A stretch of 64,000 bases of DNA from positions 7,731 through 71,730 of the forward strand of contig ASNI01000003.1 in NCBI GenBank assembly GCA_000404785.1, given 5' to 3'. The notes below the pieces were generated by a model, which was not told where the DNA came from, ran no database searches, and saw only the letters and a list, made by a program, of their open reading frames with translations. The stretch comes from Cloacimonetes bacterium SCGC AAA252-N17 (GTDB lineage Bacteria; Cloacimonadota; Cloacimonadia; JGIOTU-2). Positions 15,299 to 39,395 of this stretch are shown here, one piece after another; the stretch's first letter is position 1, and each line of letters opens with the position of its first letter. A program made the translations under genes and the position numbers.

Positions 15299-16120
15299 AT
15301 GACAGATATTCAGCAGGATCAGCAGGAGAAGAAAAAGGAACTCTATGAAAAAAATTTGAATAACATAAAACGAACGATCGTGGTGATGAGCGGTAAAGGT
15401 GGCGTGGGTAAAAGCACTGTTAGTGTGAATCTTGCATATTCCTTAGCAGAAAAGGGAAACAAAGTTGGCATTCTCGATGTTGATATTCACGGACCCTCTA
15501 TAGTAAAAATGACCGGTATCGAAAATAAAAGATTGGTTCATCAGGAAGGGCACTCCCCAACTCCTGTGCCAGTCTCAGAAAACCTTTTAGTGCTTTCCAT
15601 CGCATCATTACTTCAGGATCCGGACAGTCCGGTTATCTGGCGCGGACCTATGAAGATGAACCTCATAAAACAGTTCATGGAAGATATTGAATGGCCCGAG
15701 CTGGATTATCTTATTGTTGACTGCCCTCCGGGAACTGGAGACGAACCTCTCAGCGTTATCCAAATCCTTAAGAAAATTTTCGGTGTGATCATTGTTTCCA
15801 CACCACAAGAACTTGCCTATCTCGATGTACGGAAAGCTATTAATTTCGCAAAAAAATTGGAGATCCCCATTCTCGGTATTGTTGAGAATATGACCGAGAT
15901 CGTATGCCCTTACTGCGGACAGAGGATCGAGCTTTTCAAGGCAGGCAGCGGAGAAAAGGCATTAAAGGATTTCAATATTGACCTCCTTGGAAGAATTCCC
16001 TTTGATGTGCAGGTCGTGCAATCCGGCGATACAGGCAAACCCTTTATTGGTGAAAATGCAGACACAGAAGCAGGAAAAATATTCAACGAGATCACTGATA
16101 AAATTTTAGAAAAATTATAA
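15299..16120 (+). CDS. Mrp/NBP35 (ApbC-type) P-loop ATPase, Fe-S cluster carrier
   Basis: Deviant Walker A MSGKGGVGKSTVSVNLA, DVDIHGPS, LIVDCPPGTGDE and a C-terminal CPYCG motif. Confidence 0.9.
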   Translation: MTDIQQDQQEKKKELYEKNLNNIKRTIVVMSGKGGVGKSTVSVNLAYSLAEKGNKVGILDVDIHGPSIVKMTGIENKRLVHQEGHSPTPVPVSENLLVLSIASLLQDPDSPVIWRGPMKMNLIKQFMEDIEWPELDYLIVDCPPGTGDEPLSVIQILKKIFGVIIVSTPQELAYLDVRKAINFAKKLEIPILGIVENMTEIVCPYCGQRIELFKAGSGEKALKDFNIDLLGRIPFDVQVVQSGDTGKPFIGENADTEAGKIFNEITDKILEKL

Positions 16121-16186: not shown

Positions 16187-16253
16187 CACGAATTTATCCT
16201 GTTAAATAAAATCTCCGATTTTCCCGGAGGGATTTAACAGGGTTAACACGAAT
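16187..16253. repeat. Nested hairpin flanked by a 7-bp direct repeat (MITE-like or regulatory)
   Basis: CACGAAT (16187-16193) and CACGAAT (16247-16253) flank CCTGTTAAAT (16198-16207) / ATTTAACAGG (16232-16241). An inner CTCCG (16213-16217) / CGGAG (16225-16229) stem lies inside. Confidence 0.6.
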
Positions 16254-16340: not shown

Positions 16341-16793
16341 ATGCCACGACCAAGAAAGATCAGACGCGTAAGCAAGCCACCAATTTGCAGTAGGTTCAAA
16401 CCCGTTGGAATACCCGCACGCCTGCTGGAAAGGGTCGATCTTTCTGTTGACGAATACGAGGCGCTCCGTCTCGCTGATTATGAAGGATTCGAGCACAAAG
16501 AAGCTGCTGAAAAAATGGGAATATCACGTCCTACCTTCACCCGCCTTATTGATCAAGCACGAAAAAAGATCGCATCAGGCATCATAGAAGGAAAAGAAAT
16601 TTCTATCGAGGGCGGCGACTTCCAATTCATACAACATATAGTACGCTGCAGAAGCTGTGGTTCGCTTTCCAACTATTCACAACAAGCACCGGTAAAATGT
16701 CCCGAATGCAATGAAGCTGACCTGGAAAATCTTAATCAATATTATCAAAGAGGACGTGGTCGCGGTCGAGGACGATGGGGGCAGGGCAGATGA
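16341..16793 (+). CDS. DUF134/UPF0251 family DNA-binding protein with extra C-terminal Zn ribbon and RG-rich tail
   Basis: MPRPRKIRRV...FKPVGIP...DEYEALRLADYEG..HKEAAEKMGISRPTFTRL is the DUF134 signature. It is followed by CRSCG...CPECN and RGRGRGRGRWGQGR. Confidence 0.85.
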   Translation: MPRPRKIRRVSKPPICSRFKPVGIPARLLERVDLSVDEYEALRLADYEGFEHKEAAEKMGISRPTFTRLIDQARKKIASGIIEGKEISIEGGDFQFIQHIVRCRSCGSLSNYSQQAPVKCPECNEADLENLNQYYQRGRGRGRGRWGQGR

Positions 16794-16832: not shown

Positions 16833-17198
16833 ATGCCACGTGGAGACAGAACTGGTCCTAACGGAATGGGACCTATGACCGGGCGAGCAGCTGGCTTTTG
16901 TTCCGGATACGACAGACCTGGCTACATGAATGCAGCAGGTGGAAGAGGTAACTTTGGACGCGGATTCGGACGAGGATCCGGCTATGGACAAGGATTTGGT
17001 TATGGTCGCGGCTTCGGACGCGGAAGAGGATTTGGTGTAGATTTTGCACCCGCTTATCCTGTTGCATATGCACCATATCCCGCGTCTGCTCAAGCAGAGA
17101 ATGAAAAAGATTATCTTGAGAACGAACTGAATATGATGAAAGAAAATATGAAGCATCTTGAAACTCGACTCAAAGAAATCAAAGCTGCAGAGAAATAG
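16833..17198 (+). CDS. DUF5320 family protein (Gly/Arg-rich, C-terminal coiled coil)
   Basis: MPRGDRTGPNGMGPMTGRAAGFC N-terminus, GRGFGRGSGYGQGFGYGRGFGRGRGFG tract and a C-terminal heptad-like LENELNMMKENMKHLETRLKEIK. A strong AAGGAGG SD is present. Confidence 0.85.
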   Translation: MPRGDRTGPNGMGPMTGRAAGFCSGYDRPGYMNAAGGRGNFGRGFGRGSGYGQGFGYGRGFGRGRGFGVDFAPAYPVAYAPYPASAQAENEKDYLENELNMMKENMKHLETRLKEIKAAEK

Positions 17199-17303: not shown

Positions 17304-17600
17304 ATGCCAAGAAGAGACGGTACAGGTCCGGAAGGTCGTGGTCCCGGAACAGGTCGAAGAAACGGTAGTTGCTTTGGTGCTTTCACAAAGAAAGATGGAA
17401 GCATCTCTGTATGGCGCACACTTGTCATACCTGCTATCGGTGCGATCATAAATGACCTTCGTAAACCAGACAGCATTTCACGAAAAACCGTGAATGCAAT
17501 TGTAAATAAAGTGAAAACAAAACAGATCACAGATAAGAGAAAACCATCTGCGGAAGTAGAAGGCACTTATTCAGTGATCGATACTGAAAAAGGAGAATAA
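17304..17600 (+). CDS. DUF5320-like protein with divergent C-terminal half
   Basis: MPRRDGTGPEGRGPGTGRRNGSC N-terminus matching the DUF5320 motif. AGGAG SD is present, and a hydrophobic segment WRTLVIPAIGAII follows. Confidence 0.7.
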   Translation: MPRRDGTGPEGRGPGTGRRNGSCFGAFTKKDGSISVWRTLVIPAIGAIINDLRKPDSISRKTVNAIVNKVKTKQITDKRKPSAEVEGTYSVIDTEKGE

Positions 17601-17601
17601 C

Positions 17602-17796
17602 ATGCCAAGAGGAAACGGTCAAGGCAGAGGTGTGGGTGGAGGACAAGGACAGGGTCGCGGACAAGGTGGCAATTTCCCGGGTCCCGGCGGTTACTGCGTA
17701 TGTCCTTCTTGCGGGTACAAAGAAACCCATGTGCAAGGTGTTCCCTGCATGAACAAAACCTGCCCCAAATGCGGCGCAAAAATGGCACGAGAATAA
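17602..17796 (+). CDS. Gly/Arg-rich protein with C-terminal CxCPxCG...CPKCG zinc ribbon
   Basis: MPRGNGQGRGVGGGQGQGRGQGG then GGYCVCPSCGYKETHVQGVPCMNKTCPKCG. The ATG is 1 nt after the preceding TAA, with AGGAGA SD. The same module ends ORF 25750-26235. Confidence 0.75.
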   Translation: MPRGNGQGRGVGGGQGQGRGQGGNFPGPGGYCVCPSCGYKETHVQGVPCMNKTCPKCGAKMARE

Positions 17797-17821: not shown

Positions 17822-18187
17822 ATGCGGATAGTAATTTCTACAGAAAATGGAAACGTAGCTCAACATTTCGGACGATGTCCTGAATTTACACTTGTAGATA
17901 TCGAAAACGGAGTTTTAGAAAAAAAAGAAATCGTCCAGAATCCCGGACATGCGCCAGGTGTACTTCCAAAATATTTCAATCAATTAGGGTGTAAGATCAT
18001 CATAGCAGGTGGTATGGGTAACAGAGCACAGGAGCTATTCAGGACCTATGACATGGACTGGATAATCGGTGTGCAGGGTGATGTTGACTCTATCATAGAT
18101 GACTATATTGAAGGCACAATCACAGCAGGCGACAGCATGTGCGAACACGGCGAAGGAAAGGGACCCGGAACCAAAAAGTGGGATTAA
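17822..18187 (+). CDS. NifX/NifB-C-terminal family (dinitrogenase FeMo-cofactor-binding fold) protein
   Basis: MRIVISTENGNVAQHFGRCPEFTLVDIENG...IIIAGGMGNRAQELF, a typical NifX-like pattern. Confidence 0.85.
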   Translation: MRIVISTENGNVAQHFGRCPEFTLVDIENGVLEKKEIVQNPGHAPGVLPKYFNQLGCKIIIAGGMGNRAQELFRTYDMDWIIGVQGDVDSIIDDYIEGTITAGDSMCEHGEGKGPGTKKWD

Positions 18188-20060: not shown

Positions 20061-20449
20061 TCCATCATGCTGGACTCACCATCACCGATCCTACTGATAT
20101 AATTAATTTTTATCAGGACATACTCGGTCTGAAGATTAAAAAAGAATTCACTCTTAAAAAAGAGCTCAATCAACAATTATTTGGTTTCTATGAAGATGTC
20201 CCAGTGACCATGCTCTCAAATGGTAAAGCAGATATCGAGATTTTTGTTACAGACCTTCCTGCCAGAAATAATTATTCTCACCTGTGTATCGAAGTAGAAG
20301 ATAGAAACGAAATCATTAAAAAGGTTAAAGAAAAAAACTATAGCCATACGGTTATCGAAAGAGATCTTTACCCGCTTGTATTTATTCAAGATCGATTTGG
20401 CAACTGTTTCGAGATAAAACAAAAAATCAAAGTAGAGAATGTATCATGA
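20057..20449 (+). CDS. VOC/glyoxalase-family protein
   Basis: MIHHAGLTITDP...HLCIEV...FIQDRFGNCFEI pattern. Its start overlaps the upstream stop (ATGA) and its end overlaps the next gene. Confidence 0.7.
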   Translation: MIHHAGLTITDPTDIINFYQDILGLKIKKEFTLKKELNQQLFGFYEDVPVTMLSNGKADIEIFVTDLPARNNYSHLCIEVEDRNEIIKKVKEKNYSHTVIERDLYPLVFIQDRFGNCFEIKQKIKVENVS

Positions 20450-21306
20450 AAATAGCAATTGCAAGTGGAAAAGGCGGTACAGGTAAGACCACTCTTGCGA
20501 CGAATCTTGCCCATCTCCTTTCTCAGAAATTCCCTGTTATTCTCGCAGATCTCGATGTAGAAGAACCCAACTCCGGATTTTTCATTAAAGGGAATAAGAT
20601 ACGGGAAAAAAAAGCTTTTAGAATGATCCCTGAATGGGATAAAGATAAGTGTGTACTTTGCGGTAATTGCCAGCGAGTATGTAAGTTCAATGCAGTTATA
20701 AAATTGGGAGAAGAGGTGTTGGTTTTCAATCAACTGTGCCATGGTTGTTATGCATGCTCGGAGCTGTGTCCGCAAAATGCCCTACTCATGAAATCTTTTG
20801 AAGTGGGAAAGATCACAGAATTCAGAAAGAATGATTTGCATTTTTTAGAAGGAAAGCTCAATGTCGGCGAAGAACAGGCAGTGCCTGTGATCAAGAGAAC
20901 ATTAGAATATGTTGAGCAGAAATTTTCACCTGATATACTACGAATTTTTGATGCACCCCCAGGGACTTCCTGTCCTGTGATCGAAGCGACGAAAGATGCT
21001 GATTATATTATTCTCATCACCGAACCGACCCCCTTTGGATTGCATGATCTCAAGCTGGCTGTAGACGTTATGAGAGAGTTGAAAAAACAATGTGGCGTTG
21101 TCATAAACCGTTATGGTATTGGAAACGATGATGTGATACGTTATTGTAAAAAAGAACGTATCCCTCTCCTCGGTAAAATTCCTAATATGAAAAGAGCGGC
21201 AGAAACCTATGCAAAGGGTGGATTACTTTCTGAAACTATACCTGAGATCAGGAATTCCTTTGAAAAAATTATCGAGAACCTGCGAACTTTGGAGGTGCTG
21301 TCATGA
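20446..21306 (+). CDS. MinD/CooC-superfamily P-loop ATPase with inserted 2x[4Fe-4S] ferredoxin domain
   Basis: IASGKGGTGKTT Walker A, then CVLCGNCQRVC and CHGCYACSELCP cluster motifs. Confidence 0.88.
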   Translation: MKIAIASGKGGTGKTTLATNLAHLLSQKFPVILADLDVEEPNSGFFIKGNKIREKKAFRMIPEWDKDKCVLCGNCQRVCKFNAVIKLGEEVLVFNQLCHGCYACSELCPQNALLMKSFEVGKITEFRKNDLHFLEGKLNVGEEQAVPVIKRTLEYVEQKFSPDILRIFDAPPGTSCPVIEATKDADYIILITEPTPFGLHDLKLAVDVMRELKKQCGVVINRYGIGNDDVIRYCKKERIPLLGKIPNMKRAAETYAKGGLLSETIPEIRNSFEKIIENLRTLEVLS

Positions 21307-22184
21307 AAGAAATAGTGATCATTTCAGGTAAGGGCGGCACAGGTAAAACCTCTATCACTGCTGCGTTTGCAATGCTTGCTGGCAACGATGCCGTTATAGC
21401 AGACTGCGATGTGGACGCTGCTGATATGCACCTTCTTCTTCAACCGGATTTCTCACAATCAGAAGATTTTTATTCCGGCTTCAAAGCAGTGATCGATCAA
21501 TCATTATGTATAAAATGTGGGAAATGCCAGAAGATATGCAGATTTGATGCAATAAAAAATATCAATGACTCTTTCAATATAACACCTCTCGATTGTGAAG
21601 GATGTGGCTACTGCGCCGAAATATGCCCTGTAAAAGCAATACAAATGGTAGAGCAGAATGTCGGCAAATGGTATATTTCAAAAATAAAGAGCGGTACTCA
21701 CATGGTGCATGCGAGACTCGGTATTGGTGCTGATAATTCCGGGAAATTGGTCGCGAAAGTCAAAAAAGAAGCAAAGAATGTTGCCCAAGAAACAAGCAAG
21801 GATATTATTCTTGTCGATGGCTCTCCCGGTATTGGATGTCCTGTAGTATCTTCTTTGTCCGGTGCTGATTATGTAATTCTTGTTACTGAACCTACACTGT
21901 CCGGATTTCATGACATGAAGAGAGTGTTTGAACTTATTCAAAATTTCAAACTTCCATCAGGCTGTATTATAAACAAGTATGATATAAATATTGAAATCGC
22001 AGAGAAAATACGCGATTTTTGTGAGAAAAATTCGATAGATCATATTTCAAATCTTCCTTACGATGAGAGCTTTACTGTCGCAATGACACAAGGAAAAACA
22101 ATTATTGAAAGCAATTCCGAAACCTTGAAAATTATTTTAGAAGATAGTTGGAAAAAGATAATTAAGCTCACGGATTTTCACTGA
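21303..22184 (+). CDS. MinD/CooC-superfamily P-loop ATPase with inserted 2x[4Fe-4S] ferredoxin domain (paralogue)
   Basis: IISGKGGTGKTS Walker A, then CIKCGKCQKIC and CEGCGYCAEICP. There is a 4-nt overlap with the preceding paralogue. The last codons (KLTDFH) are encoded by a repeat arm. Confidence 0.88.
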   Translation: MKEIVIISGKGGTGKTSITAAFAMLAGNDAVIADCDVDAADMHLLLQPDFSQSEDFYSGFKAVIDQSLCIKCGKCQKICRFDAIKNINDSFNITPLDCEGCGYCAEICPVKAIQMVEQNVGKWYISKIKSGTHMVHARLGIGADNSGKLVAKVKKEAKNVAQETSKDIILVDGSPGIGCPVVSSLSGADYVILVTEPTLSGFHDMKRVFELIQNFKLPSGCIINKYDINIEIAEKIRDFCEKNSIDHISNLPYDESFTVAMTQGKTIIESNSETLKIILEDSWKKIIKLTDFH

Positions 22185-22822: not shown

Positions 22823-23152
22823 ATGAAAATCGCATTTACAACAAAAGGAAAAGAATGGGACTCCCCTATGGATCCCAGGTTTGGAAGAACAGAATATTTT
22901 CTTATTTATGATGAAAAAAACGACGAACTGACCTCAATTGATAACACTGATATCAATGAAGTTGCGCATGGTGCAGGTCCCCGTACAGCTCAGAAACTTT
23001 TTGAACAAAAACCCGATGTGTTGATCACCGGCAATGGACCTGGTGGTAATGCTGCGATGGCTCTCCAACAAGGAAATATTAAAATTATTACTGGTGCTGG
23101 AACAATGACAGCAAAACAAGCTTATGAGGCTTACAAAAACGGTACATTATAA
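22823..23152 (+). CDS. NifX/NifB-C-terminal family protein
   Basis: MKIAFTTKGKEWDSPMDPRFGRTEYFLIYD...VLITGNGPGGNAAMAL. Confidence 0.85.
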   Translation: MKIAFTTKGKEWDSPMDPRFGRTEYFLIYDEKNDELTSIDNTDINEVAHGAGPRTAQKLFEQKPDVLITGNGPGGNAAMALQQGNIKIITGAGTMTAKQAYEAYKNGTL

Positions 23153-23158
23153 TTGTTT

Positions 23159-23302
23159 ATGAAATTCAACGTCGCCTTTGCCACAGATGATGGGAAAACA
23201 TTTATTGGTCGTCATTTTAGCGATGCACTCTTTTATGATATTTATGAACTTGGGAGCAAAAAAATTGATCAAAATGCGGATGAAATAATATGCCACAAAT
23301 AA
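23159..23302 (+). pseudogene. 47-codon 5' fragment of a NifX-like gene (paralogue of 24063-24455)
   Basis: MKFNVAFATDDGKTFIGRHFSDALFYDIYEL aligns with MEKIRVAFATDDGKTFMGRHFGDARFYDIYEL. The frame then ends inside the start of the TauE gene. Confidence 0.6.
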
Positions 23303-24033
23303 CATTAATCACAATTTATTTTATTATCGGTACTTTTGCTGGTTTTATGAGCGGTATGTTTGGAATTGGAGGAGGGACTGTAAGGATACCTTTGCTTAAT
23401 CTTGCAGGGTTGCCTTTATTAAGCGCCTTTGGAATTAATTTTTTTGTTATCCCTTTTTCATCATTAGTAGGTGCAATAAGTCAGAGAAAAAACATCGCCA
23501 AAGAGATAGTGATTTATGCGATTGTCGGGGGTGTCTTAGGAGAAATAATAGGAGCAATTTCTGTCAGATTTATCCCGACGCTAATCCTGGCAATTATCTT
23601 TGCTATCCTTTGTTTTATAGTAGCATTTGGCATTCATTTAAGTAAGATTGTGCCAAAGCTTGCCCAAAAGGTTAAACCTACTAAGAGAAATATTTTTGGC
23701 TCTTCTTTTTTTGTAAGTATTATAACCGGTTTAAGAGGGGGCAGTGGTGGTCAAATCTTTCCAGCCCTTTTTAAAAGTTTTGGTCTTGATACCCACCAAG
23801 CAATCGCCACTTCATTAACTGTATCAATTTTTACTGCCTTTGGTGCTATACCAATATATTGGCATCGTGGTAATATAGTCTGGATTCCGGCGTTATTTGT
23901 ACTTATAGGCTCAATGATCGGTGCAAGAATTGGAAGTAAAGTTTCATTAAAGACAAAGCCGCTTTGGCTAGAAATTGGACTTACAATGCTTATTATAGTT
24001 CTTGCTTTTAGTGTAATATATAAAGCATTATAA
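23290..24033 (+). CDS. TauE/SafE family sulfite/anion exporter
   Basis: 247 aa of polytopic membrane protein with the GxGGG motifs typical of TauE (FGIGGGTVRIPLL, LRGGSGGQIF). Confidence 0.8.
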   Translation: MPQITLITIYFIIGTFAGFMSGMFGIGGGTVRIPLLNLAGLPLLSAFGINFFVIPFSSLVGAISQRKNIAKEIVIYAIVGGVLGEIIGAISVRFIPTLILAIIFAILCFIVAFGIHLSKIVPKLAQKVKPTKRNIFGSSFFVSIITGLRGGSGGQIFPALFKSFGLDTHQAIATSLTVSIFTAFGAIPIYWHRGNIVWIPALFVLIGSMIGARIGSKVSLKTKPLWLEIGLTMLIIVLAFSVIYKAL

Positions 24034-24062: not shown

Positions 24063-24455
24063 ATGGAAAAAATAAGAGTAGCATTTGCCACTGATGATGG
24101 CAAAACCTTTATGGGAAGGCATTTTGGAGATGCGCGTTTTTATGACATTTATGAACTTTATGAGAATCAAGCTTCTTTTTTAAAAAGGATCGAAAACACA
24201 GTTGATGAAGAAGAGGATGTACATGCAGATCCTAAAAAAGCAAAGGGAATCAGCACCCTACTTCTCGAAGAAAAGGTAAATGTTGTTGTATCAAAAATTT
24301 TTGGACCAAATATTAAGCGCATAAAAAAGAAATTTGTCTGCATCGTAGTGAGAGATGATGAAATTGATATTGGACTGAAAAAAATCTGTGAAAATATTGA
24401 GAAAATACATGTCGAATGGGAAAAAGGCCAAGAGAGAACACATCTCTTAATGTAA
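24063..24455 (+). CDS. NifX/NifB-C-terminal family protein
   Basis: RVAFATDDGKTFMGRHFGDARFYDIYEL...VVVSKIFGPNIKRI. Confidence 0.8.
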   Translation: MEKIRVAFATDDGKTFMGRHFGDARFYDIYELYENQASFLKRIENTVDEEEDVHADPKKAKGISTLLLEEKVNVVVSKIFGPNIKRIKKKFVCIVVRDDEIDIGLKKICENIEKIHVEWEKGQERTHLLM

Positions 24456-24473: not shown

Positions 24474-25116
24474 TTGGCAAAAACAAGGGCATTCAATAAT
24501 AATTTGCACAAATATGAAGAGTGGTTTGTAATCAATAAATTCGTATATTTATCCGAATTAAAAGCAGTTGAAAAAGCAATTCCAAAAAAATGAAAAGGGT
24601 TTTGAGATAGGAATCGGCAGTGGTCTTTTTGCACAACCTTTTGATATAAAAGAAGGAATAGATCCTTCTAATAAGATGAGGGGAAAAGCAAAGGAAAGAG
24701 GGATTAAGACCATTGATGCAGTTGCTGAAAATCTCCCCTACCCTGATGAGAGTTGGAATTATGCTTTGATGGTTACCACGATTTGTTTCGTAGATGATAT
24801 ACAAAAGTCATTTCAGGAAGCTCATCGCGTTCTCAAACAAGATGGCCATCTCATCATCGGGTTTGTTGATAAAAACAGTACTGTTGGGAAAACATATTTA
24901 GAATTTCAAGATAAAAGTGTTTTTTATAAAGAAGCAACATTTTTTGGAACTGAAGAAGTCTATGAATTGCTCCAACAAACGGGATTTAAAATTGAAGAAA
25001 CCTTTCAGACAGTGTTTGGAAAACTTGATGAAATAACTGAAGTTCAAAAAGTGTTAGATGGGTACGGAGATGGTAGTTTTATCGTTATTAATGCAAAAAA
25101 AACAAAATCGTTTTAA
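24474..25116 (+). CDS. Class I SAM-dependent methyltransferase, reading frame broken at an A7 run (24584-24590)
   Basis: The upstream frame (TTG 24474) gives AKTRAFNNNLHKYEEWFVINKFVYLSELKAVEKAIPKK-stop. The downstream ORF 24568-25116 carries GFEIGIGSG (motif I) and ENLPYPDESWNY. Deleting one A yields a continuous ...AIPKNEKGFEIGIGSG. Confidence 0.75.
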
Positions 25117-25749: not shown

Positions 25750-26235
25750 ATGACAAAAATAGACAAAGAAAAATGCATTGGCTGTAGCGTTTGTGTTAAT
25801 ATTTGTCCTGAAGGTTTTTTAATTAAAAACTCAATAGCTGAAATTATAGACGAACATGCTTCATGTATTGATAAAGCGGCAAATGCTTGTCCGGTTGGAG
25901 CTATTGTCACAACCAAAACAGATAAAAAGAGCACTCAATCAAGAACAAAAAAAGAAGTGTTTTCTGAATCGACTGAAAGAATTGAAAATTCATTTAGTAA
26001 TTATGGTAGAGGTAGTGGGCAAGGATTTGGTTCAGGTAGAAGTGGTGGACAAGGAAAAAACCAAGGACTTGGTTTCGGCAGTGGTGGAGGACGGGGAAGA
26101 AATCAAGGTTTGGGTCGGGGACAAGGTGGTTATTGTGTTTGCCCAAGTTGCGGACATAAAGAACCGCACCAAAGAGGTGTTCCGTGCTATCAAACTCACT
26201 GTCCGAAATGTAATTCGATTATGAGACGAGTTTAA
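25750..26235 (+). CDS. 4Fe-4S ferredoxin fused through a Gly-rich linker to a CxCPxCG...CPKC zinc ribbon
   Basis: [12 protein letters not shown] and a partial second cluster motif (ANACPVGAI), then [42 protein letters not shown], then [29 protein letters not shown]. Confidence 0.8.
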   Translation: [161 protein letters not shown]

Positions 26236-31999: not shown

Positions 32000-32023
32000 G
32001 AAATACACTGCGAAAGGAACTGA

Positions 32024-32869
32024 ATGAAAACCTATTTTGAATGCTTTCCCTGTTTCGTCAAACAAGCGCTTCGTGCTGCGAGATTATTCACAGATGACCC
32101 GAAAGTAATAAAATCCATCATAGATGAAGTCGGAATGCTCTTTCAAGAAATTTCTTTGGATAAAACTCCTCCAGAAATTGGAGAGTTCATTTACGGTAAA
32201 ATCAGGGAAATTTCCGGCGTAGAAGACCCTTACGAAAACCTTAAAAACCAAAACACGGATGAAGCATTGCAGCTTGTTCCTTTTTGTGAAAATCTTATCT
32301 CAGAAAGTACTGATCCCCTTTTTACAGCTATCAAAATGGCAATTGCCGGAAATGTCATTGATCTTGCGATCCATCAAAATATTGATATCCCCTCGGAAAT
32401 TAAAACGATCATTCATAAAGAATTTGCTATAAACGATTATGAACTATTCAAAAGTCGGTTGGAGCAATCTAAAACAATTCTCTATATAGGAGATAATGCA
32501 GGCGAATCAGTGTTTGACAGATTGTTGATCGAGCAGTTTGCTCATAAAAAAGTGATTTATGCAGTTCGTGGAACTCCTGTTATTAATGATGTGGTTGAAA
32601 AGGATGCAAAACGGGCAGGTATCGATAAAGTAGCTGAAATCGTGTCCTCCGGTTCAGCAGTTCCTGGCACAATACTCTCAAAATGCAGCGGAGAATTCAA
32701 AAGGCTTTTCATGAATGCTGATATGATCATAAGCAAAGGGCAGGGAAATTATGAAGGTATATCTGAAGAAAGTAGAGAGATCTTTTTCCTCCTCAAAGTA
32801 AAATGTGAAGTACTGGCGAGGGATATTGGTTTTCCTATTAATTCGCTTGTTTTGATGAGATTAAGCTAA
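32024..32869 (+). CDS. DUF89 / ARMT1-like damage-control phosphatase
   Basis: MKTYFECFPCFVKQALRAARL N-terminus, DNAGE (YIGDNAGESVFD) and KGQGNYE motifs. Confidence 0.85.
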   Translation: MKTYFECFPCFVKQALRAARLFTDDPKVIKSIIDEVGMLFQEISLDKTPPEIGEFIYGKIREISGVEDPYENLKNQNTDEALQLVPFCENLISESTDPLFTAIKMAIAGNVIDLAIHQNIDIPSEIKTIIHKEFAINDYELFKSRLEQSKTILYIGDNAGESVFDRLLIEQFAHKKVIYAVRGTPVINDVVEKDAKRAGIDKVAEIVSSGSAVPGTILSKCSGEFKRLFMNADMIISKGQGNYEGISEESREIFFLLKVKCEVLARDIGFPINSLVLMRLS

Positions 32870-33054
32870 AGTATTTTCATCCATGTTGCAAAAGTATACT
32901 TAACAGATTATCAACCACGAAATACACGAAAAAACACGAAACAATATTAATGTAGAACCAAAACAAATAAAGATTGTCATCCTGAGCTTGTCTAAGAGTC
33001 TATTTATTATGCTCATACACCGTCGGGATAAACCCGTCTCTACCCTATCTCTCG

Positions 33055-33157
33055 TTGCGAAAGCTTTAGGACGTTAAATGCTTGCCCTGTGTAATCCACG
33101 AAGTGGTGCAAAGCAATTACACAGGGCGGGCAAATTTAACTGTTCCCTTTTTCGCAA
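33055..33157. repeat. About 100-nt extended imperfect hairpin (candidate structured RNA or MITE-like element)
   Basis: Perfect 12-bp core GCCCTGTGTAAT (33084-33095) / ATTACACAGGGC (33116-33127) with a 20-nt loop holding a CCAC-gaa-GTGG mini-stem. The outer arms TTGCGAAAG (33055-33063) / CTTTTTCGCAA (33147-33157) and TTAAAT flanks also pair. Confidence 0.55.
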
Positions 33158-33258
33158 TGCTTTGGATGTTCAAACATTCAATAAAAAAAATGACGTCATC
33201 CCCGATCGTGCCTGGGTATCCGCATGCAAAAAAGGCGGACGTTTTCGCTCCACTCAAA

Positions 33259-33501
33259 TTATAAGTGTTTGATTGTAAATGCTCTCCCTGAATGGCTTTT
33301 CAAGTATCTCTCAAATGAGTGGGCTTTTTCTTTATTATCAAACGCTATATATGTCTTGATTTTCCAAGGTTTGTATTTCGTTGTGTGTTTTACTTCCCCA
33401 TTGTTATGCTTTTCTAATCGAAATTTCAAATCTGAAGTATAACCAGTATAGTAATTATCTGGGAAATTGATACTTTTCAGAATATATACATAGTACATCA
33501 T
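33259..33501 (-). CDS. GIY-YIG nuclease family protein (small, URI domain only)
   Basis: MMYYVYILKS...YYTGYTSDLKFRLEKHN. AGGAG lies 6 nt upstream of the ATG at 33501. Confidence 0.85.
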   Translation of the reverse strand: MMYYVYILKSINFPDNYYTGYTSDLKFRLEKHNNGEVKHTTKYKPWKIKTYIAFDNKEKAHSFERYLKSHSGRAFTIKHL

Positions 33502-33629
33502 AATACTCCTGTTGGCTTGCCGATGCGAAGTTTTGAGCAAAATAAAAATCGTCGATCAGCACGGCTTCATTCGCCGCTGGCGATTACGCCGCTGCAGTCT
33601 TCATTTTTCGCTTCGCTCAAAACGAAGAC

Positions 33630-33981
<352 letters not shown>

Positions 33982-34016
33982 TATGTATTTTTCAAAAAGC
34001 GATTTAAACAACTTAT

Positions 34017-34044
34017 AATTTAGCACCACAAAATCGGCTGTCAA
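34017..34044 (-). promoter_or_regulatory. Candidate promoter of ssrA
   Basis: On the minus strand: TTGACA (34039-34044), 16-nt spacer, TAAATT (34017-34022), about 36 nt upstream of the mature 5' end. Confidence 0.35.
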
Positions 34045-34053
34045 GTTTGGATG

Positions 34054-34090
34054 TAAAGAAAAACGGCTTCATGGATATCCACAAAGCCGT
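34054..34090 (-). terminator. Rho-independent terminator after the PorV-like gene
   Basis: On the minus strand: ACGGCTT-14nt-AAGCCGT (34063-34090), followed by TTTTCTTT. Confidence 0.65.
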
Positions 34091-34110
34091 AAGTATAGTT
34101 TTTTCTATGA

Positions 34111-35067
34111 TTAGAAGCCTAGATCAATGGCAAGTTTATGAGTTGCACCTTCATCAAGAAAATCAGGTATATAGGCATAGTCAAAGCGGAAATCGCTTAA
34201 TACGATCGAAGCGCCCATTGTGAAATCTTCTCCATCAAGACCGGCACGTACAGCAAATAAGTTTGCAAGCCAGCCCTCTACGCCGAGGTGTAATTTGAAA
34301 TCATTTTTCTGATCGCCTTCACGTCCAAGAGACTGAGAAATTTCCGCAGTACCGATCAAATCAAATGAGGTGAGCTGAAGGTCTGTTGATGCGCCAAGAC
34401 GAAGCATGGGAAGTATTGTATCTTCATGGTCAGAATCAGTGTCCCATTTCATCTTTCCACCAAAGTTTAGCAAGCTTGCGCCTGCGCGGATCTGTTTTAT
34501 CAGTCCGCTGGAAACAGGTGAGATGATCATTGCGCCAAGATCGAATGCGAAACTTGATGCCTTGTTGTCATCGATGGATTGCATAATATACTTGGCTCCT
34601 GCACCAAAGCTGAGCAAAGGTATGATCTTGCCACCTGCAGAAATACCCAGAACCATATCATTGGAGCTAAATGTAACTCCGCTTGGACCCTGACCGGGCA
34701 GGCATTCAATAATATCGCTCACTCCAATACTATTGAAGGTGACCGCCATAGCTGCATCACGCTTGCTGCCTACAATGATCGATGCCTGATAGTTCATTCT
34801 ATCTAAGCTCATAATATTGTACATAGCACCCAAGCGTGTGCCTTTTATTTGGCAGAGACCAGCGGGATTGAAGAAGGGAGCTGAGCCGTCATCTGCAATA
34901 GCAGTAAATGCATTTCCCAGACCGGCAGGACGAGCACCAACAGGAATTCTCAGGAAAGCACCTCCCTGTCCGCCTGCAATATCTTCTTCTGCAAACGCAA
35001 AGGAGGTGAATAATCCAAGTATTGCCACGAAAGAAAGTACTGTCTTGATAATTTTATATGTTTTCAT
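34111..35067 (-). CDS. porV: PorV/PorQ-family outer-membrane beta-barrel (T9SS-associated)
   Basis: Signal peptide, then GGAFLRIPVGARPAGLGNAFTAIADDGSAPFFNPAGL, the characteristic PorV N-terminal motif. The protein ends with an aromatic residue (F). Confidence 0.75.
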   Translation of the reverse strand: MKTYKIIKTVLSFVAILGLFTSFAFAEEDIAGGQGGAFLRIPVGARPAGLGNAFTAIADDGSAPFFNPAGLCQIKGTRLGAMYNIMSLDRMNYQASIIVGSKRDAAMAVTFNSIGVSDIIECLPGQGPSGVTFSSNDMVLGISAGGKIIPLLSFGAGAKYIMQSIDDNKASSFAFDLGAMIISPVSSGLIKQIRAGASLLNFGGKMKWDTDSDHEDTILPMLRLGASTDLQLTSFDLIGTAEISQSLGREGDQKNDFKLHLGVEGWLANLFAVRAGLDGEDFTMGASIVLSDFRFDYAYIPDFLDEGATHKLAIDLGF

Positions 35068-35081
35068 TGTTATCTCCTTTC

Positions 35082-37826
35082 CTAGCGTAATATCGCTACT
35101 TTGATGATTTTTTTCTCACCAGCTTGATTTTCAACGATGATAAAATAAACACCATTTGCGACAAAGTCGCCATATTCATTTTTACCATCCCACCGCATAC
35201 TGATATTACCTACATCATCGCTTTCTTTCACCAGTTCACCGGCTATGTCGTATATTCTAAGCTTGGTTTTAGGAGAAATGGGATCATCAAAGTTTGGAAA
35301 TATTTCACCCTCATTAGGATATCCCTCATGTCCAATCTTAAATGGATTTGGACAGAAGCATGGTTCATCAGTAGGTGGTTCAGCAGTTCCAAGCTCGACT
35401 ATCACTTGGTTATTATCTTCATTATACTCTTCTATATCGTAATCGGCATCCGCATGAATATAAATATCATGAGGAAGTGTATCTGGCATAGTCCAATTCA
35501 GAGAAACTGTTTCAGTATTTCCATTTCCCATTGGTCCAATAGTAAATGATCCAATTGGATTGACTATTATTGTTGGATCACCATCATAAAAACGAACAAC
35601 AAACTCACCAACAGTAGCACCACCCTCAGTATGGCATTCAATGGCAGCTTCAAAAGATACTACCTCTCCTTCGGCAGGATGAAGATTTGATACTGTTACA
35701 TTGTTTTCTGTTAATTCAAGATCAACATTTGATGTCCATAATGTAACATATTTTGGAGCAGTTGAATCAGAACAAGCATTTGCTGTATGGACTCTTAGAC
35801 CAATAAGACCTGAGTACAAATTATCAAATACCACATCAGTTGTTTCACCAGTTGCATCATCATATTGTCCATCGCCATTTGTATCCCATTCGTAGAGTAT
35901 GATTTCACCACCATCTGGATCATACGAACCAGAGCCATTCAATGTTATAGTTTCACCAATTTGACCAAAGTAAGGACCACCTGGATCTGCAATTGGAGCA
36001 TGAATTACACCATCATCTACTATTGTAAAATGGACATCTGTATCTGTTAAACTGTCACTACCAGTAACACGCAAAGTTACTTCAAAAGTATCTTCCACAG
36101 AATATTCCCATGTTACAAATTCACCAATAGCATCAGGATTATCCCAGTCAAGACCATCACTTGCATCAAAGTCCCATTCCCATTGAGTAATAAATTCCTC
36201 AGGATTTTGATGATATGAATTTGCACCTGAATAAGCAATCGGAGTATCAGTTGGTTGAGGTAGATTAGAAGAGCTAATAACTGCTATGGGTTGTAATTGA
36301 ACTACACCACGAGTTAATACTAATATTGCAGTAGGAGTTGTTCCTGCTGTCCATGTAATAGCATAAGTTCCACCGGGCCAGGAACCATCAGCATTTTGAC
36401 CATAATAGCTATTGTCAAGAAGGTAATCTGAAATCTCTTCATACCAGTCTATTGGTCCAGTACCAAATGTTGTAATATCGTAGAATTCCATTGCTTTTTT
36501 AAAACCATAAAGTGCATAGTAATTCCCACCTAACATTTCACCAGCCGATCCATCATAGGTATCATAGAAGTGAACATCTAAAAAATTTAGACCATTTACA
36601 ATTGTAGAATCAGTAATTGGTGTTCCAATATAATAATGACTTGCCAGACCTGCTCCTGTTTTAACATTATTATCCCAATAACCGGGGGATGTATATCCAA
36701 AACCACCATCAATATACTGACTATATTCAAGCCAATATGCCAGTTCAGTTTTTACCCATTCTGGTGTTTGTATTGGTGGCATATTTTGTTCAATTGCTTT
36801 CAGAGCAAGCACAGGCCATTGGACAGCTGAGTTATCACTTGAGCCATAATTACTAGTAGCAGCACCATATCGCCAACCACCACGTTGATTTCCAGAGGAT
36901 GCGTCAGTTTGTGACCATGCAATACAATTCATAGCATCTTCCATTATTTCGTAATATGTCATTCCAGCAAGGTTACCACTTGCAACAACACTATCCGGTT
37001 GATTGCTTGCTGCAACAGACAAGCACCCAATACCATTTGCATATACATTAGTAGAAAAATAAACTCCAATACCATCTCCATCAGTATCTGGATCACCAGC
37101 AGTTTGTACATTAATAGAAATGTTTCTGCCATGATGATTTATTATCCAATCTAAGCCTAATTGAACAGTTTCAGCATAAATATCCTCATCAGGATCATTA
37201 TTTCCGTGATGTGCATTCTCTTCAAATGCCAATACAGCCAAGCCAGTCGTACCCATTCCGTAATAATCACTTGAATCGTACCACCAGCCGCTTGCGTTTT
37301 GATTTAAATACAACCAGCGCAAACCATCTTCAATTGCAGCATTAATCCGCTGTTGTTTAGCAACAATCGGGATTACATCAATTGTTGCTTGATCAACATC
37401 TATTAGTCCATCGTCATCAGTCACTGTTAATGTGGCAGTTTTTATACCACCTGTAGTATAGGTATGTGTTACAGCAATATATCGAGCATCTGCAACAGCA
37501 CCTGTCAGAATATTTCCATCACCCAGATCCCATTCATAGTTTCCAGCTGAGATATCACCCCAATGTACGTTACCCCAAATTGTAATTTCTCTACCAACCC
37601 AACTATAATAATGAGGCATACAATTTACCATTGGTCCAGCTTGTTTTGATTGCATTATTTCATTCCAGTCATCAGGATCATTCAATTCAGGGGGAGGAGG
37701 TGCTGTTGAATATTTCTCAAGCAACTCCTGGGCTCGGTCTATCAAATCATCTGCCAACACAGATGATAACATAAAACCTAATGAAATAATAATTCCAATA
37801 AGTATTAATAATATCTGTTTTTTCAT
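35082..37826 (-). CDS. Secreted multidomain protein: PKD, prenyltransferase/terpenoid-cyclase-like alpha-toroid, PKD repeats, CARDB-like, T9SS/FlgD-Ig C-terminal domain
   Basis: Signal peptide; PKD-like WDLGDGN...TATLTVTDDDG and WDFDASDG / WDTNGDG; toroid-like repeats (AIEDGLRWLYLNQNASGWW). The C-terminus is IYDIAGELV...WDGKNEYGDFVANGVYFIIVENQAGEKKIIKVAILR. Confidence 0.8.
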   Translation of the reverse strand: MKKQILLILIGIIISLGFMLSSVLADDLIDRAQELLEKYSTAPPPPELNDPDDWNEIMQSKQAGPMVNCMPHYYSWVGREITIWGNVHWGDISAGNYEWDLGDGNILTGAVADARYIAVTHTYTTGGIKTATLTVTDDDGLIDVDQATIDVIPIVAKQQRINAAIEDGLRWLYLNQNASGWWYDSSDYYGMGTTGLAVLAFEENAHHGNNDPDEDIYAETVQLGLDWIINHHGRNISINVQTAGDPDTDGDGIGVYFSTNVYANGIGCLSVAASNQPDSVVASGNLAGMTYYEIMEDAMNCIAWSQTDASSGNQRGGWRYGAATSNYGSSDNSAVQWPVLALKAIEQNMPPIQTPEWVKTELAYWLEYSQYIDGGFGYTSPGYWDNNVKTGAGLASHYYIGTPITDSTIVNGLNFLDVHFYDTYDGSAGEMLGGNYYALYGFKKAMEFYDITTFGTGPIDWYEEISDYLLDNSYYGQNADGSWPGGTYAITWTAGTTPTAILVLTRGVVQLQPIAVISSSNLPQPTDTPIAYSGANSYHQNPEEFITQWEWDFDASDGLDWDNPDAIGEFVTWEYSVEDTFEVTLRVTGSDSLTDTDVHFTIVDDGVIHAPIADPGGPYFGQIGETITLNGSGSYDPDGGEIILYEWDTNGDGQYDDATGETTDVVFDNLYSGLIGLRVHTANACSDSTAPKYVTLWTSNVDLELTENNVTVSNLHPAEGEVVSFEAAIECHTEGGATVGEFVVRFYDGDPTIIVNPIGSFTIGPMGNGNTETVSLNWTMPDTLPHDIYIHADADYDIEEYNEDNNQVIVELGTAEPPTDEPCFCPNPFKIGHEGYPNEGEIFPNFDDPISPKTKLRIYDIAGELVKESDDVGNISMRWDGKNEYGDFVANGVYFIIVENQAGEKKIIKVAILR

Positions 37827-37941
37827 CCTGTTCTCCTTTTAATTTTATTTTTTTTTAGGAAACCTATTTAAGAAAGTAGTATCCAAAAATATGCCTATTG
37901 GAGACATTAATTGATCTGTGTGCATTTTAAATTTTTCCATA

Positions 37942-38272
37942 TTATTTCGAAAAGGGACACGCTGCAATACAGCTTGAACATCCGCCGCCATTTTCAACCC
38001 AAAACATGTAACATTTATCAACATCAACAGCCCAGCGTTTAACTCCGGGATTATTTGAAACACTCTATATTATATGAAGGTTCTACATCGCACGAAATCG
38101 CAGACACTTCACATGCATCAATGCATACTTTACATTTTTTGCAAAAATCTTGTAAAGAAAAATCTACGGGCTTGTCAACTATTTGTGAAAAATAAGTAGA
38201 AAATGTGCAATTTTCTGTTCGGATAGAATAGGTTTGCTTGTTTTTGAGTGTTGCATAGAATGAAACCAACAT
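37942..38272 (-). pseudogene. C-terminal remnant of a reductive-dehalogenase/QueG-like 2x[4Fe-4S] protein, frameshifted
   Basis: Frame A reads ...DKPVDFSLQDFCKKCKVCIDACEVSAISCDVEPSYNIE. After a 1-nt shift near 38060, frame B reads SVSNNPGVKRWAVDVDKCYMFWVENGGGCSSCIAACPFSK-stop. Only about 110 codons remain and there is no N-terminal domain. Confidence 0.55.
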
Positions 38273-38275
38273 CGT

Positions 38276-39379: not shown

Positions 39380-39395
39380 GCATATCCTCCAATAA

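Follow-up and report, generated by a model that had tools for sequence, protein, structure and literature searches.

A widespread Cys6-His module on Gly-rich tails in ORP-type gene clusters, and its fusion to a ferredoxin in a Cloacimonetes bacterium

What is the Cys-rich segment that closes a ferredoxin gene of Cloacimonetes bacterium SCGC AAA252-N17, and why does it recur on a small Gly-rich protein encoded nearby? Both genes lie in the window, the 64,000 bp stretch of contig ASNI01000003.1 that was analysed (Table 1). Their products, P0001 and P0002, both terminate in C-x-C-P-x-C-G-x4-H-x5-C-x4-C-P-x-C-[GN]-x2-[ML]-x-R, and an earlier note on this DNA was right to recognise one module in two settings, behind a ferredoxin and a Gly/Arg linker in the former and on a 64 amino acid MPRG/Gly-rich protein in the latter. 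The N-terminus of P0001 matches the Pfam models Fer4_13 (E 1.7e-7) and Fer4 (E 3.2e-7), both over cut-off, and its AlphaFold2 (AF2) model has two confident domains with a disordered linker in between, the first of which is a single-cluster ferredoxin (pLDDT 93–96). This domain has the CxxCxxC...CP pattern and (beta-alpha-beta)2 fold of single-cluster 4Fe-4S ferredoxins, and its top Foldseek matches are those of T. maritima (1vjw), D. gigas (FdII, 1fxd) and P. furiosus (1siz), with TM scores of 0.72–0.83, rmsd of 1.3–1.6 Å and 30–36% identity; all of the matches of the full P0001 model fall on the ferredoxin domain and none on the module. By analogy we take C9, C12, C15 and C47 to be the cluster ligands, and C19 and C39 presumably occupy the positions of the disulfide pair in the T. 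maritima and P. furiosus proteins. The three known ferredoxins share fold and cysteine pattern with P0001 but are free-standing proteins of ~60 amino acids that have neither linker nor module. The P0001 linker is rich in Gly, Ser and Arg, its final 43 residues being 49% Gly with five Arg and no acidic residue. P0001 has 47 relatives, the nearest of which, from Ca. Celaenobacter, is annotated "ferredoxin", and the 22 relatives of P0002 are all unnamed or "hypothetical".

Table 1. Positions of the two module genes, their domains and the surrounding gene cluster in the window
Feature	Position	Strand	Evidence
Mrp/NBP35 Fe-S carrier ATPase	15299..16120	+	PF10609 E 8.4e-96
DUF134 putative regulator, own CxxC...CxxC ribbon, RG-repeat tail	16341..16793	+	PF02001 E 7.1e-28; sequence
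DUF5320 protein: MPRGDRTGP head, Gly/Arg/aromatic tract, C-terminal coiled coil	16833..17198	+	PF17253 E 3.9e-26
Second head protein (MPRRDGTGP), different C-terminal part	17304..17600	+	PF17253 on head only, E 9.9e-7
P0002, 64 aa: MPRG head, Gly/Arg-rich, module	17602..17796	+	Translation
Module copy 2, residues 28-64 of P0002	17683..17793	+	Sequence, alignment with copy 1
NifX-like gene (Nitro_FeMo-Co, PF02579), 25 bases 3' of module copy 2	17822..18187	+	Pfam E 1.6e-17
MinD/CbiA ATPase, two Fer4 motifs (Orp3/Orp4-like)	20446..21306	+	Pfam
Second MinD/CbiA ATPase, two Fer4 motifs (Orp3/Orp4-like)	21303..22184	+	Pfam
NifX-like gene	22823..23152	+	PF02579 E 2.8e-14
NifX-like gene, nearest to P0001 gene	24063..24455	+	PF02579 28 bits, over cut-off; weak TIGR02663 nifX match
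P0001, 161 aa: ferredoxin, Gly/Arg linker, Cys6-His module	25750..26235	+	Translation, Fer4 Pfam matches, AF2
Mono-[4Fe-4S] ferredoxin domain, residues 3-55 of P0001	25756..25914	+	Pfam Fer4_13, Fer4_15 and Fer4 over cut-off; Foldseek
Disordered linker, residues 56-125 of P0001	25915..26124	+	pLDDT <50; composition
Module copy 1, residues 126-161 of P0001	26125..26232	+	Sequence; AF2 pLDDT 91–96

These are the only two module copies in the whole 2.41 Mb genome. Over 35 aligned codons they share 23 identical residues (66%) and 61% of their bases; 13 of the 23 identical residues are encoded by different codons, and pS is 0.84 (saturated) with a pN of 0.27. Synonymous sites are thus saturated while the ligand residues are kept, and the two copies are therefore old paralogues under purifying selection rather than the product of a recent duplication, as had been proposed. 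Both genes have good Shine-Dalgarno sequences. That of P0002, AAAGGAG, lies within the 3' end of the preceding gene; P0002 starts one base past the stop of that gene and ends 25 bases ahead of a NifX-like gene that, among NCBIfam models, best matches the C-terminal domain of MrpORP. The P0001 gene is 1.3 kb from its nearest NifX-like gene, with two apparently unrelated genes between them. The genome has only three PF02579 genes, all of them between the two module genes.

The motif extends well beyond these two ORFs. A profile search (E<=1e-3, clusters at 50% identity) gave 2,204 matching clusters, and a degenerate DNA pattern scan for genomic loci found at least 119 module loci in ~20 bacterial phyla and ~10 archaeal lineages; Acetobacterium bakii and Solidesulfovibrio alcoholivorans are cultured species among the carriers. 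The six cysteines C1–C6 and the His are invariant among 41 aligned sequences and likewise among 113; the 150 best representatives contain 185 modules, of which 99% keep C1 and 92% the His, with Lys, Arg or Gln in place of the His in ~8%. The module is covered by neither Pfam nor NCBIfam, since all matches, including those to Zn-ribbon models, fall below cut-offs, and no description of it was found in literature searches on DUF5320, on orange protein/DUF134/NifX/Mrp, on DVU2107, on thioferrate/IssA or on magnetosomes and NifX. The module is a distinct, ancient, uncurated and unnamed domain family of ~36 residues that is found in anaerobic bacteria and archaea.

What travels between proteins is larger than the module. 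In 90 of 110 loci the 30 residues ahead of it are at least 30% Gly, and the medians are 43% Gly, 17% Arg+Lys and 0% Asp+Glu; some Bacteroidales DUF134 fusions have no Gly-rich tract. The portable unit is almost always a cationic, acid-free, Gly-rich disordered tail with the module at its C-terminal end, so the modularity claimed for the 35-residue segment stands, but the unit is tail plus module and not those 35 residues alone. The commonest carrier has a DUF5320-type MPRGDGTGP head, as in P0002. Other partners are ferredoxins (with Fer4 N- or C-terminal), NifX-like proteins, DUF134, CDF metal transporters and rhodanese, and there are also PDZ/NifX membrane giants in a magnetosome-like locus, forms with signal peptides, membrane-anchored forms and tandem arrays of 3–5 modules; in large proteins the module is a C- or N-terminal domain. 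The ferredoxin fusion had been read as a Rosetta-stone link between ferredoxin and the MPR/Gly-rich proteins. This argument holds, as several fusion types exist and ferredoxin-module homologues lie within ORP-type operons, but ferredoxin is just one of at least six partner types.

The neighbours of module genes within 8 kb were counted at 117 loci; module ORFs labelled DUF134 were left out of the counts, because the HMM behind those labels had been built from fusion proteins and the labels are an artefact. A separate NifX-like gene is present in 76 of these loci (~65%), a MinD-Fer4 ATPase gene in 63 (54%), Mrp in 30 and another MPR/DUF5320 ORF in 31. For 61 of 96 small module genes a same-strand NifX-like, MinD-Fer4, Mrp or MPR-type neighbour lies within 150 bp, and 14 small module genes are followed within 5 bp by the start of a MinD-Fer4 ATPase gene. 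In the organism's own phylum PF02579 is found in all 16 module-positive genomes, mostly on the same contig within 3 kb, and in at least 12 of the 16, which have just 1–5 NifX-like genes, one of these genes is no more than 3 kb from the module. Module genes thus belong to co-directional operons of the ORP ("orange protein") type, with NifX-like genes, MinD-ferredoxin ATPases (Orp3/4-like) and Mrp/NBP35, and the module is almost confined to ORP/IssA-type Fe-S handling clusters or fused to parts of them. Nor is it a generic ribbon strewn randomly over genomes: its usual company is NifX-like, MinD-ferredoxin, Mrp, DUF5320 and DUF134 genes. Neither of the two outcomes that the earlier note named as refuting its reading, a motif confined to the two ORFs or a generic ribbon with no preferred surroundings, is what we see. 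Of 101 genomes of the phylum, 86 have NifX-like genes and 16 the module, which is therefore dispensable for the core system.

The AF2 models of the module are confident (pLDDT 90–96), and its predicted fold is zinc-ribbon-like, with a CPxCG-type knuckle on each of two short beta-hairpins: neither C-P-x-C-G nor C-P-x-C-[GN] varies, strands flank both knuckles in the model, and alignment and model together put the two CxxC knuckles at beta-hairpin turns, as in zinc ribbons. There is no significant match to a solved structure, the best PDB sequence match having an E of 0.007 and the best Foldseek match an E of 0.49. The top, non-significant, Foldseek matches are knuckle domains that bind Zn or Fe(Cys)4 (MCM, HypA, desulforedoxin, rubrerythrin). 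The best structural and sequence neighbours are MCM, HypA, desulforedoxin, Rpb12 and small archaeal CPxCG zinc-finger proteins such as HVO_2753, zinc ribbons or rubredoxin-like domains which share the two Cys-Pro-x-Cys-Gly knuckles on beta-hairpins; the module differs from them in its extra near-invariant C1, His and C4, its fixed spacing and its specific genomic context, and the similarity is non-significant. With six Cys and one His it has seven near-invariant ligand-type positions, three above the need of a plain zinc ribbon, and these positions together with the context suggest that it is metal-binding or redox-coupled.

An unlikely, if still serious, alternative is that the module is a plain structural ribbon that binds only Zn, recruits its carrier, be it tail, ferredoxin, NifX-like domain, regulator or transporter, to the ORP-type complex as a knob for docking or oligomerisation, and does not itself touch Fe-S material. 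The two knuckles, the zinc-ribbon-like model and the weak sequence similarity to generic Zn ribbons are what it would predict, the frequent translational coupling to MinD-Fer4 ATPase genes fits a binding partner, and particles of IssA, the Fe-S storage protein of Pyrococcus furiosus (PF2025), have about one Zn per monomer (PMC5524996). Four ligands would be enough for such a site, yet C1, C4 and the His are conserved like the four knuckle cysteines, and the arrays of 3–5 modules and the signal-peptide and membrane-anchored forms would be unusual for a simple docking knob. Less probable again is a rubredoxin/desulforedoxin-like Fe(Cys)4 or binuclear redox centre for electron transfer, for example to reduce or oxidise the iron of NifX-bound species, which would make the ferredoxin fusion a two-centre carrier. 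The best fold matches include desulforedoxin, desulfoferrodoxin, rubrerythrin and rubredoxin B, ferredoxin has been fused repeatedly and independently, and in the PDZ/NifX proteins of the magnetosome-like locus the module is placed like the haem "magnetochrome" of D. magneticus FmpB (PMC4287615). However, none of the fold matches is significant, the Pfam and NCBIfam rubredoxin family models match neither P0001 nor P0002, a disordered linker of 70 residues would be a poor electron wire between two centres, and most carriers have no other redox centre.

The gene cluster between and around the two copies is of the ORP type. The ORP complex of D. vulgaris Hildenborough consists of five proteins, Orp3, Orp4, Orp5, Orp8 and Orp9/MrpORP (PMC6345978), and the window has the same set of components: two MinD/CbiA-type ATPases each with two Fer4 motifs, several NifX-like proteins and Mrp/NBP35; here and in most related loci a module gene is found inside such a set. 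The window differs in that Mrp and the NifX-like domain are unfused, rather than joined as in MrpORP, and the module has been reported in none of the five complex proteins. A further difference is that the likely regulator is the DUF134 protein, whose gene heads the cluster, and not a sigma-54 activator; no sigma-54 promoter or OrpR-type activator was seen among the ORFs of 14–30 kb. A palindrome 5' of the DUF134 gene, TGAACATAAGTTCA, does not recur ahead of the P0001 gene and is no more frequent in the window than expected by chance, and the promoter and terminator scans gave results at the level of shuffled sequence. A further idea is that the Gly/Arg tract and ribbon form a nucleic-acid-binding unit that regulates the operon, like the RGG boxes beside zinc fingers in eukaryotic RNA-binding proteins. 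The tracts are indeed cationic and RGG-like, the module is fused to the HTH protein DUF134 in other genomes, and the DUF134 protein of the window has a ribbon and RG tail of its own. We nevertheless consider this reading very improbable: no operator common to the two promoters of the window was found, and the NifX-like, ferredoxin, CDF and PDZ fusions and the signal-peptide and membrane-anchored forms do not fit it.

DUF5320 (PF17253) proteins resemble the module proteins in their MPRGDGTGP head, their Gly/Arg tract and the operons in which they lie; DUF5320 proper ends in a coiled-coil helix, whereas module proteins end Cys-rich. P0002 has the Cys6-His module in place of the coiled-coil segment and gives no PF17253 match at E<=0.1, and module proteins with the canonical MPRGDGTGP (e.g., P0071 and L022) match that model through the head only. 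Small size and a conserved N-terminal head are also what one would expect of precursors of a ribosomally made, Cys-modified peptide (RiPP) with MPRGDGTGP as its leader; the Gly-rich tract weakly matches the radical-SAM RiPP family TIGR04260 (E 8.6e-4), and some related clusters have radical SAM genes. This is scarcely credible, in that the module folds confidently as a domain and is found in large proteins, the TIGR04260 match is driven by composition and falls below the cut-off (19.9 bits against 31), and no maturase or exporter gene is adjacent to the module gene in the window.

The most informative comparison is with IssA. There a NifX-like domain binds anionic iron-sulfide (thioferrate) and a cationic Gly-rich tail wraps it, and IssA reconstitutes ferredoxin in vitro, passing clusters to a P. 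furiosus-type ferredoxin (PMC5524996). The systems share a NifX-like domain paired with a cationic, Gly-rich, disordered tail, and a context of Fe-S handling in strict anaerobes. They differ in that NifX-like domain and tail are one polypeptide in IssA, which stores Fe and S as thioferrate nanoparticles, and separate genes in the window. The IssA tail carries just one Cys and lacks the Cys6-His module, so it is composition and the common NifX-like partner that support the analogy. Fusions of a NifX-like domain, a Gly/Arg tail and the module do exist elsewhere (P0027-P0038, L007, L074 and L083), and these may be what has been described as "IssX", an uncharacterised clade with Gly-rich tails (PMC5524996).

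Our preferred reading of the module family, with a probability of about 0.6, is that the module binds metal and caps a cationic tail like that of IssA, the two serving in ORP-type Fe-S handling. By this analogy the tail and cap would probably act like the IssA tail, here as a separate or differently fused polypeptide, and the Cys6-His cap would provide a folded, metal-liganding end, at which Fe-S species could be anchored or terminated, or which could bind to NifX-like proteins or ATPases. In P0001 the handle would tether a one-cluster ferredoxin to Fe-S material, as electron donor or acceptor or as a recipient of clusters. Against this cap reading, the seven positions could be an ordinary structural Zn site plus a second, adventitious one. 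The replaced His of some modules, the Bacteroidales fusions that lack the tract, the two genes that separate P0001 from its nearest NifX-like gene and the many genomes of the phylum with NifX-like genes and no module also count against it. A bolder form of it, possible though distinctly speculative, is that Gly-rich tail and cap are an unrecognised portable "iron-sulfide handle", a split and elaborated IssA tail whose cap would ligate or nucleate linear or mineral Fe-S on NifX-like domains, and which evolution would have added to cytoplasmic ORP-type Fe-S trafficking, to metal transporters, to a transcription factor, there as its sensor, and to magnetosome-like proteins of iron biomineralisation.

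If the handle reading is true, the module would represent a novel type of Fe-S or binuclear metal site on a zinc-ribbon scaffold. Few parts of Fe-S biology in strict anaerobes, here including methanogens, sulfate reducers, Dehalococcoidia, Asgard archaea and tiny-genome lineages, are understood as poorly as the ORP complex and IssA-like proteins, and there is now a defined, small, well-folded and easily expressed domain with a sharp signature that is a faithful marker of such systems. The fusions predict contacts of the tail and cap with NifX-like proteins, ferredoxin, MinD-ferredoxin ATPases, CDF transporters and the DUF134 regulator. The module merits a family model, which would give consistent annotation to thousands of "hypothetical proteins" and "ferredoxins".

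Translation shows that both ORFs of the window's module genes end in the same ~36-residue Cys6-His motif, C-x-C-P-x-C-G-x4-H-x5-C-x4-C-P-x-C-[GN]-x2-[ML]-x-R (its cysteines are C1 to C6 in order), and that in the longer one it is preceded by a ferredoxin domain (Pfam Fer4_13, Fer4_15 and Fer4 each score above cut-off), both as claimed in the earlier note. In an AlphaFold2 model of this 161-residue protein, built with 113 aligned sequences, the ferredoxin part (residues 1–55) has a pLDDT of 93–96, residues ~56–125 are disordered (pLDDT <50) and the C-terminal module is confident (pLDDT 91–96). By Foldseek its N-terminal domain groups with 1vjw of T. maritima, 1fxd of D. gigas and 1siz of P. furiosus, all single-cluster ferredoxins, with TM 0.72–0.83 and rmsd 1.3–1.6 Å, and the final 43 residues of the linker are 49% Gly with five Arg and no acidic residues. 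Over 35 codons the two module copies have 23 identical residues, 13 of them with different codons, and 61% identical bases; with pS at 0.84 (saturated) and pN at 0.27, these are old paralogues retained by selection, and the note's preference for purifying selection over recent duplication is upheld. The whole 2.41-Mb genome contains no third copy.

The motif also occurs well beyond the two ORFs, contrary to the outcome that the note named as refuting its reading. Word-indexed homologue searches with the two window proteins gave 69 relatives, and 69 of these 71 proteins (queries included) have it with identical spacing. Alignment positions C5, C7, C10, H16, C22, C27 and C30 are invariant among 41 aligned modules and also in a 113-sequence alignment, and each of G3, P8, G11, G19, P21, P28 and R36 is kept in at least 90% of the former. 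Of 1.84 billion cluster representatives, 2,204 match a module profile at E ≤ 1e-3 and 329 still do so at E ≤ 1e-10; among 185 modules from the best 150 matches, selected for having C4 as well as all four knuckle cysteines, 99% have C1 and 92% have the His (Lys, Arg or Gln replace it in the remainder), and the hydrophobic position following the last knuckle is Met (75%) or Leu (25%). A degenerate DNA pattern of ~50 bits, for which chance matches are negligible, matched at least 119 genome loci in a 596-Gb collection. The matches listed include Desulfobacterota, Chloroflexota, Planctomycetota, Bacteroidota, Bacillota, Actinomycetota, Armatimonadota, Acidobacteriota, Spirochaetota, Verrucomicrobiota/Lentisphaerae, Omnitrophota, Hydrogenedentota, Thermotogota, Dictyoglomota, Fusobacteriota, Zixibacteria, Marinimicrobia and Patescibacteria and, in the archaea, Thermoplasmata, Methanomassiliicoccales, Methanosarcinales, Halobacteria, Thermococci, Bathyarchaeia, Promethearchaeota and Nano-, Pace- and Aenigmatarchaeota; two are cultured strains, Acetobacterium bakii DSM 8239 and Solidesulfovibrio alcoholivorans DSM 5433. 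In the window's own phylum, Cloacimonadota by the names of its close matches, the module is patchy (16 of 101 genomes, mostly in two families). No curated model in Pfam (2025) or NCBIfam (release 20) reaches its own cut-off on it, the proteins are called "hypothetical protein", "ferredoxin", "DUF5320 family protein" or "PDZ domain-containing protein", and no description was found in the literature searched. The module is a real, widespread protein family that lacks a name.

Modelled alone (mean pLDDT 90), the module is predicted to have its first knuckle, C-P-x-C-G, at the turn of a short hairpin, the His after the second strand, C4 at the start of a short helical turn, and a second knuckle, C-P-x-C-G/N, that runs into the last strand. 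Foldseek gave no significant match to this model (best E = 0.49); the top, non-significant entries are Zn(Cys)4 or Fe(Cys)4 knuckle domains (MCM ribbon, HypA, desulforedoxin/desulfoferrodoxin, rubrerythrin, Rpb12 and rubredoxin B), and a PDB sequence search found generic ribbons only (E ≥ 0.007). Since all these neighbours are knuckle domains or generic ribbons, the predicted fold class is zinc-ribbon-like, although the family is distinct. Among rival readings of the module's role, a purely structural zinc docking knob is the weightiest, if an improbable one, and a rubredoxin-like redox centre is less probable again. Unlike a zinc ribbon, which needs four ligands, the module has three further conserved ligand-type residues, and its seven positions could serve for two metals bridged by a shared thiolate, for a site of four ligands beside an open one of three, or for a cluster.

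The portable unit is the module together with the tail that precedes it. Gly makes up at least 30% of the 30 residues ahead of the module in 90 of 110 loci (medians: Gly 43%, Arg+Lys 17%, Asp+Glu 0%), and the module nearly always lies 6–8 residues from the C-terminus. Nucleic-acid binding by this cationic tract and knuckle module seems very unlikely. Most commonly (55 of 118 module ORFs) the unit follows an MPRGDGTGP head in proteins of 60–90 residues, and 41 further ORFs are small and of uncertain start; that such small proteins are RiPP precursors is scarcely credible. Tail and module follow a single-cluster ferredoxin (the window's type, also in one Thermococci MAG), a two-cluster ferredoxin (locus L050; with an intervening MPR head in protein P0022), a NifX-like domain (P0027–P0038, L007, L074, L083) or DUF134 (with a DUF5320 head in place of the tail in L022), and in P0023, P0049 and L112 an N-terminal module precedes a C-terminal ferredoxin. 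Membrane-anchored proteins of 600–1,500 residues combine PDZ (some with trypsin), one to three NifX-like domains and two to five modules; PF02579, the NifX-like domain, is in 21 and PDZ in 19 of 49 multi-module or long matches. Protein P0076 joins rhodanese, modules and a NifX-like domain. Several of these fusions clearly arose independently of one another, and this gives the Rosetta-stone argument of the earlier note its strength. CDF transporters (Cation_efflux, with ZT_dimer in some) of Leptospirales, Bathyarchaeota, Moranbacteria and Saccharibacteria MAGs have the module as their cytoplasmic C-terminus, behind a common FG(R/K)xFGWQ linker. P0075 (220 aa, JGI metagenome) starts with a clear signal peptide and has three modules in tandem but no Gly-rich tail, so the module is found outside the cytoplasm too.

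Both module genes lie in one co-directional neighbourhood, whose gene set is that of the D. vulgaris ORP ("orange protein") complex, in which Orp3/4 are MinD-Fer4, Orp5/8 NifX-like and Orp9 MrpORP proteins (PMC6345978); the window's three PF02579 genes are all those in the genome. In the DUF134 protein a ribbon of a simpler CxxC...CxxC kind is followed, at the extreme C-terminus, by a RGRGRGRGRWGQGR tail, by which the Gly/Arg theme reaches a putative regulator. The start codon of its gene is preceded, at a distance of 16 nt, by a perfect 5-4-5 palindrome, TGAACATAAGTTCA, and the nested hairpin has CCTGTTAAAT...ATTTAACAGG around CTCCG...CGGAG with CACGAAT repeats on its flanks. The 49-aa ORF duplicates the N-terminus of the third NifX-like gene, and the TauE/SafE-type gene lies between the two, an arrangement that looks like a remnant of duplication or insertion. 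The methyltransferase-like ORF starts inside the SAM-binding region, so this gene may be truncated or frameshifted.

Features of the window and of other loci carrying the module
Feature	Coordinates	Strand	Remark
Mrp/NBP35	15299-16120	+	
Nested hairpin	16187-16253		between mrp gene and DUF134 promoter region
DUF134	16341-16793	+	
DUF5320	16833-17198	+	
MPR-head protein	17304-17600	+	
MPR-tail-module	17602-17796	+	64 residues; motif at C-terminal end
NifX-like	17822-18187	+	
MinD-ferredoxin ATPase, first	20446-21306	+	
MinD-ferredoxin ATPase, second	21303-22184	+	
NifX-like, second	22823-23152	+	
49-aa ORF	23153-23302		
TauE/SafE-type membrane protein	23290-24033		
NifX-like, third	24063-24455	+	
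Methyltransferase-like ORF	24568-25116		region 24474-25116
Ferredoxin-tail-module	25750-26235	+	161 residues; motif at C-terminal end
CDF-module	L050:4207-5271		
CDF-module	L032:6383-7468		
CDF-module	L090:5188-6252		
CDF-module	L107:4258-5307		
Giant PDZ protein gene with the genes upstream of it	L109:3-7969		Pirellulales MAG CAZDVE010000030.1, bases 32001-40000

Neighbours at 117 loci were classed by HMMs seeded from window proteins. A separate NifX-like gene is present at 76 of them, a MinD-Fer4 ATPase at 63, another MPR/DUF5320 ORF at 31, Mrp at 30 and a separate DUF134 at 20, counts that are underestimates because the blocks are fixed, ≤8 kb and often ended by contig ends. The commonest order is DUF134, NifX, module, MinD-Fer4 (twice), NifX, Mrp. 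Such a neighbour lies within 150 bp on the same strand for 61 of 96 small module genes, 14 of which have a MinD-Fer4 ATPase gene starting within 5 bp downstream. PF02579 is found in 86 of the 101 genomes of the phylum sample (1–5 copies each), including all 16 module-positive ones, and in at least 12 of these 16 the module is ≤3 kb from a copy on the same contig; a random gene is equally near in <1% of cases. The preferential association with NifX-like/DUF5320 neighbourhoods, whose absence would have refuted the note's reading, is thus supported. Ferredoxin-module homologues sit inside such operons at loci L127, L128 and L129; the order in L129 is DUF134, DUF5320, ferredoxin-module, MinD-Fer4 (twice), NifX (twice), and in L127 and L128 the gene is flanked by NifX/MinD-Fer4 genes and by MBL, aminotransferase and glyoxalase genes also present in the window.

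We note that locus L109 encodes a protein of at least 996 aa in which two PDZ domains and a NifX-like domain are combined with modules in tandem, and that upstream on the same strand are CDF, rhodanese, 220-aa TPR protein, LemA protein and two further CDF genes, which together make up the MamA/MamQ/MamB/MamM/MamE-P-like set known from magnetosome gene clusters. Giant proteins of a similar kind occur in Desulfamplus sp. MAGs, and FmpB of D. magneticus RS-1 is a magnetochrome+PDZ+NifX protein (PMC4287615). Iron biomineralisation may be one of the processes into which the module was drawn.

In IssA of P. furiosus a NifX-like domain carries a disordered tail of 70 residues, cationic and rich in glycine and aromatic residues, which has been proposed to wind around anionic thioferrate chains; IssA particles contain ~38 Fe and one Zn per monomer and can rebuild the [4Fe-4S] cluster of P. 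furiosus ferredoxin, and mesophiles have an uncharacterised clade, "IssX", whose members likewise end in Gly-rich tails (PMC5524996). The module proteins resemble a portable form of the IssA tail, with a folded Cys-rich end added. This analogy draws on the natural NifX-tail-module fusions, the close linkage to NifX-like genes, the acid-free cationic tracts and the ferredoxin partner of the T. maritima/P. furiosus type. The analysis establishes the family with its conservation, modularity, neighbours and predicted fold, and from there we infer metal binding, the kind of metal and an IssA-like mechanism. Probably (at roughly 60%) the Cys6-His cap is metal-binding and serves either to anchor or terminate Fe-S species or to dock the tail onto partners, and the ferredoxin fusion would tether an electron carrier or cluster acceptor to Fe-S material. 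The fold class, ORP-type clusters and the analogy to IssA were known before; the present work adds a definition of the module as a Cys6-His family of its own, marked by a fixed signature, together with its census, its cationic tail, the catalogue of its fusion partners and its quantified association.
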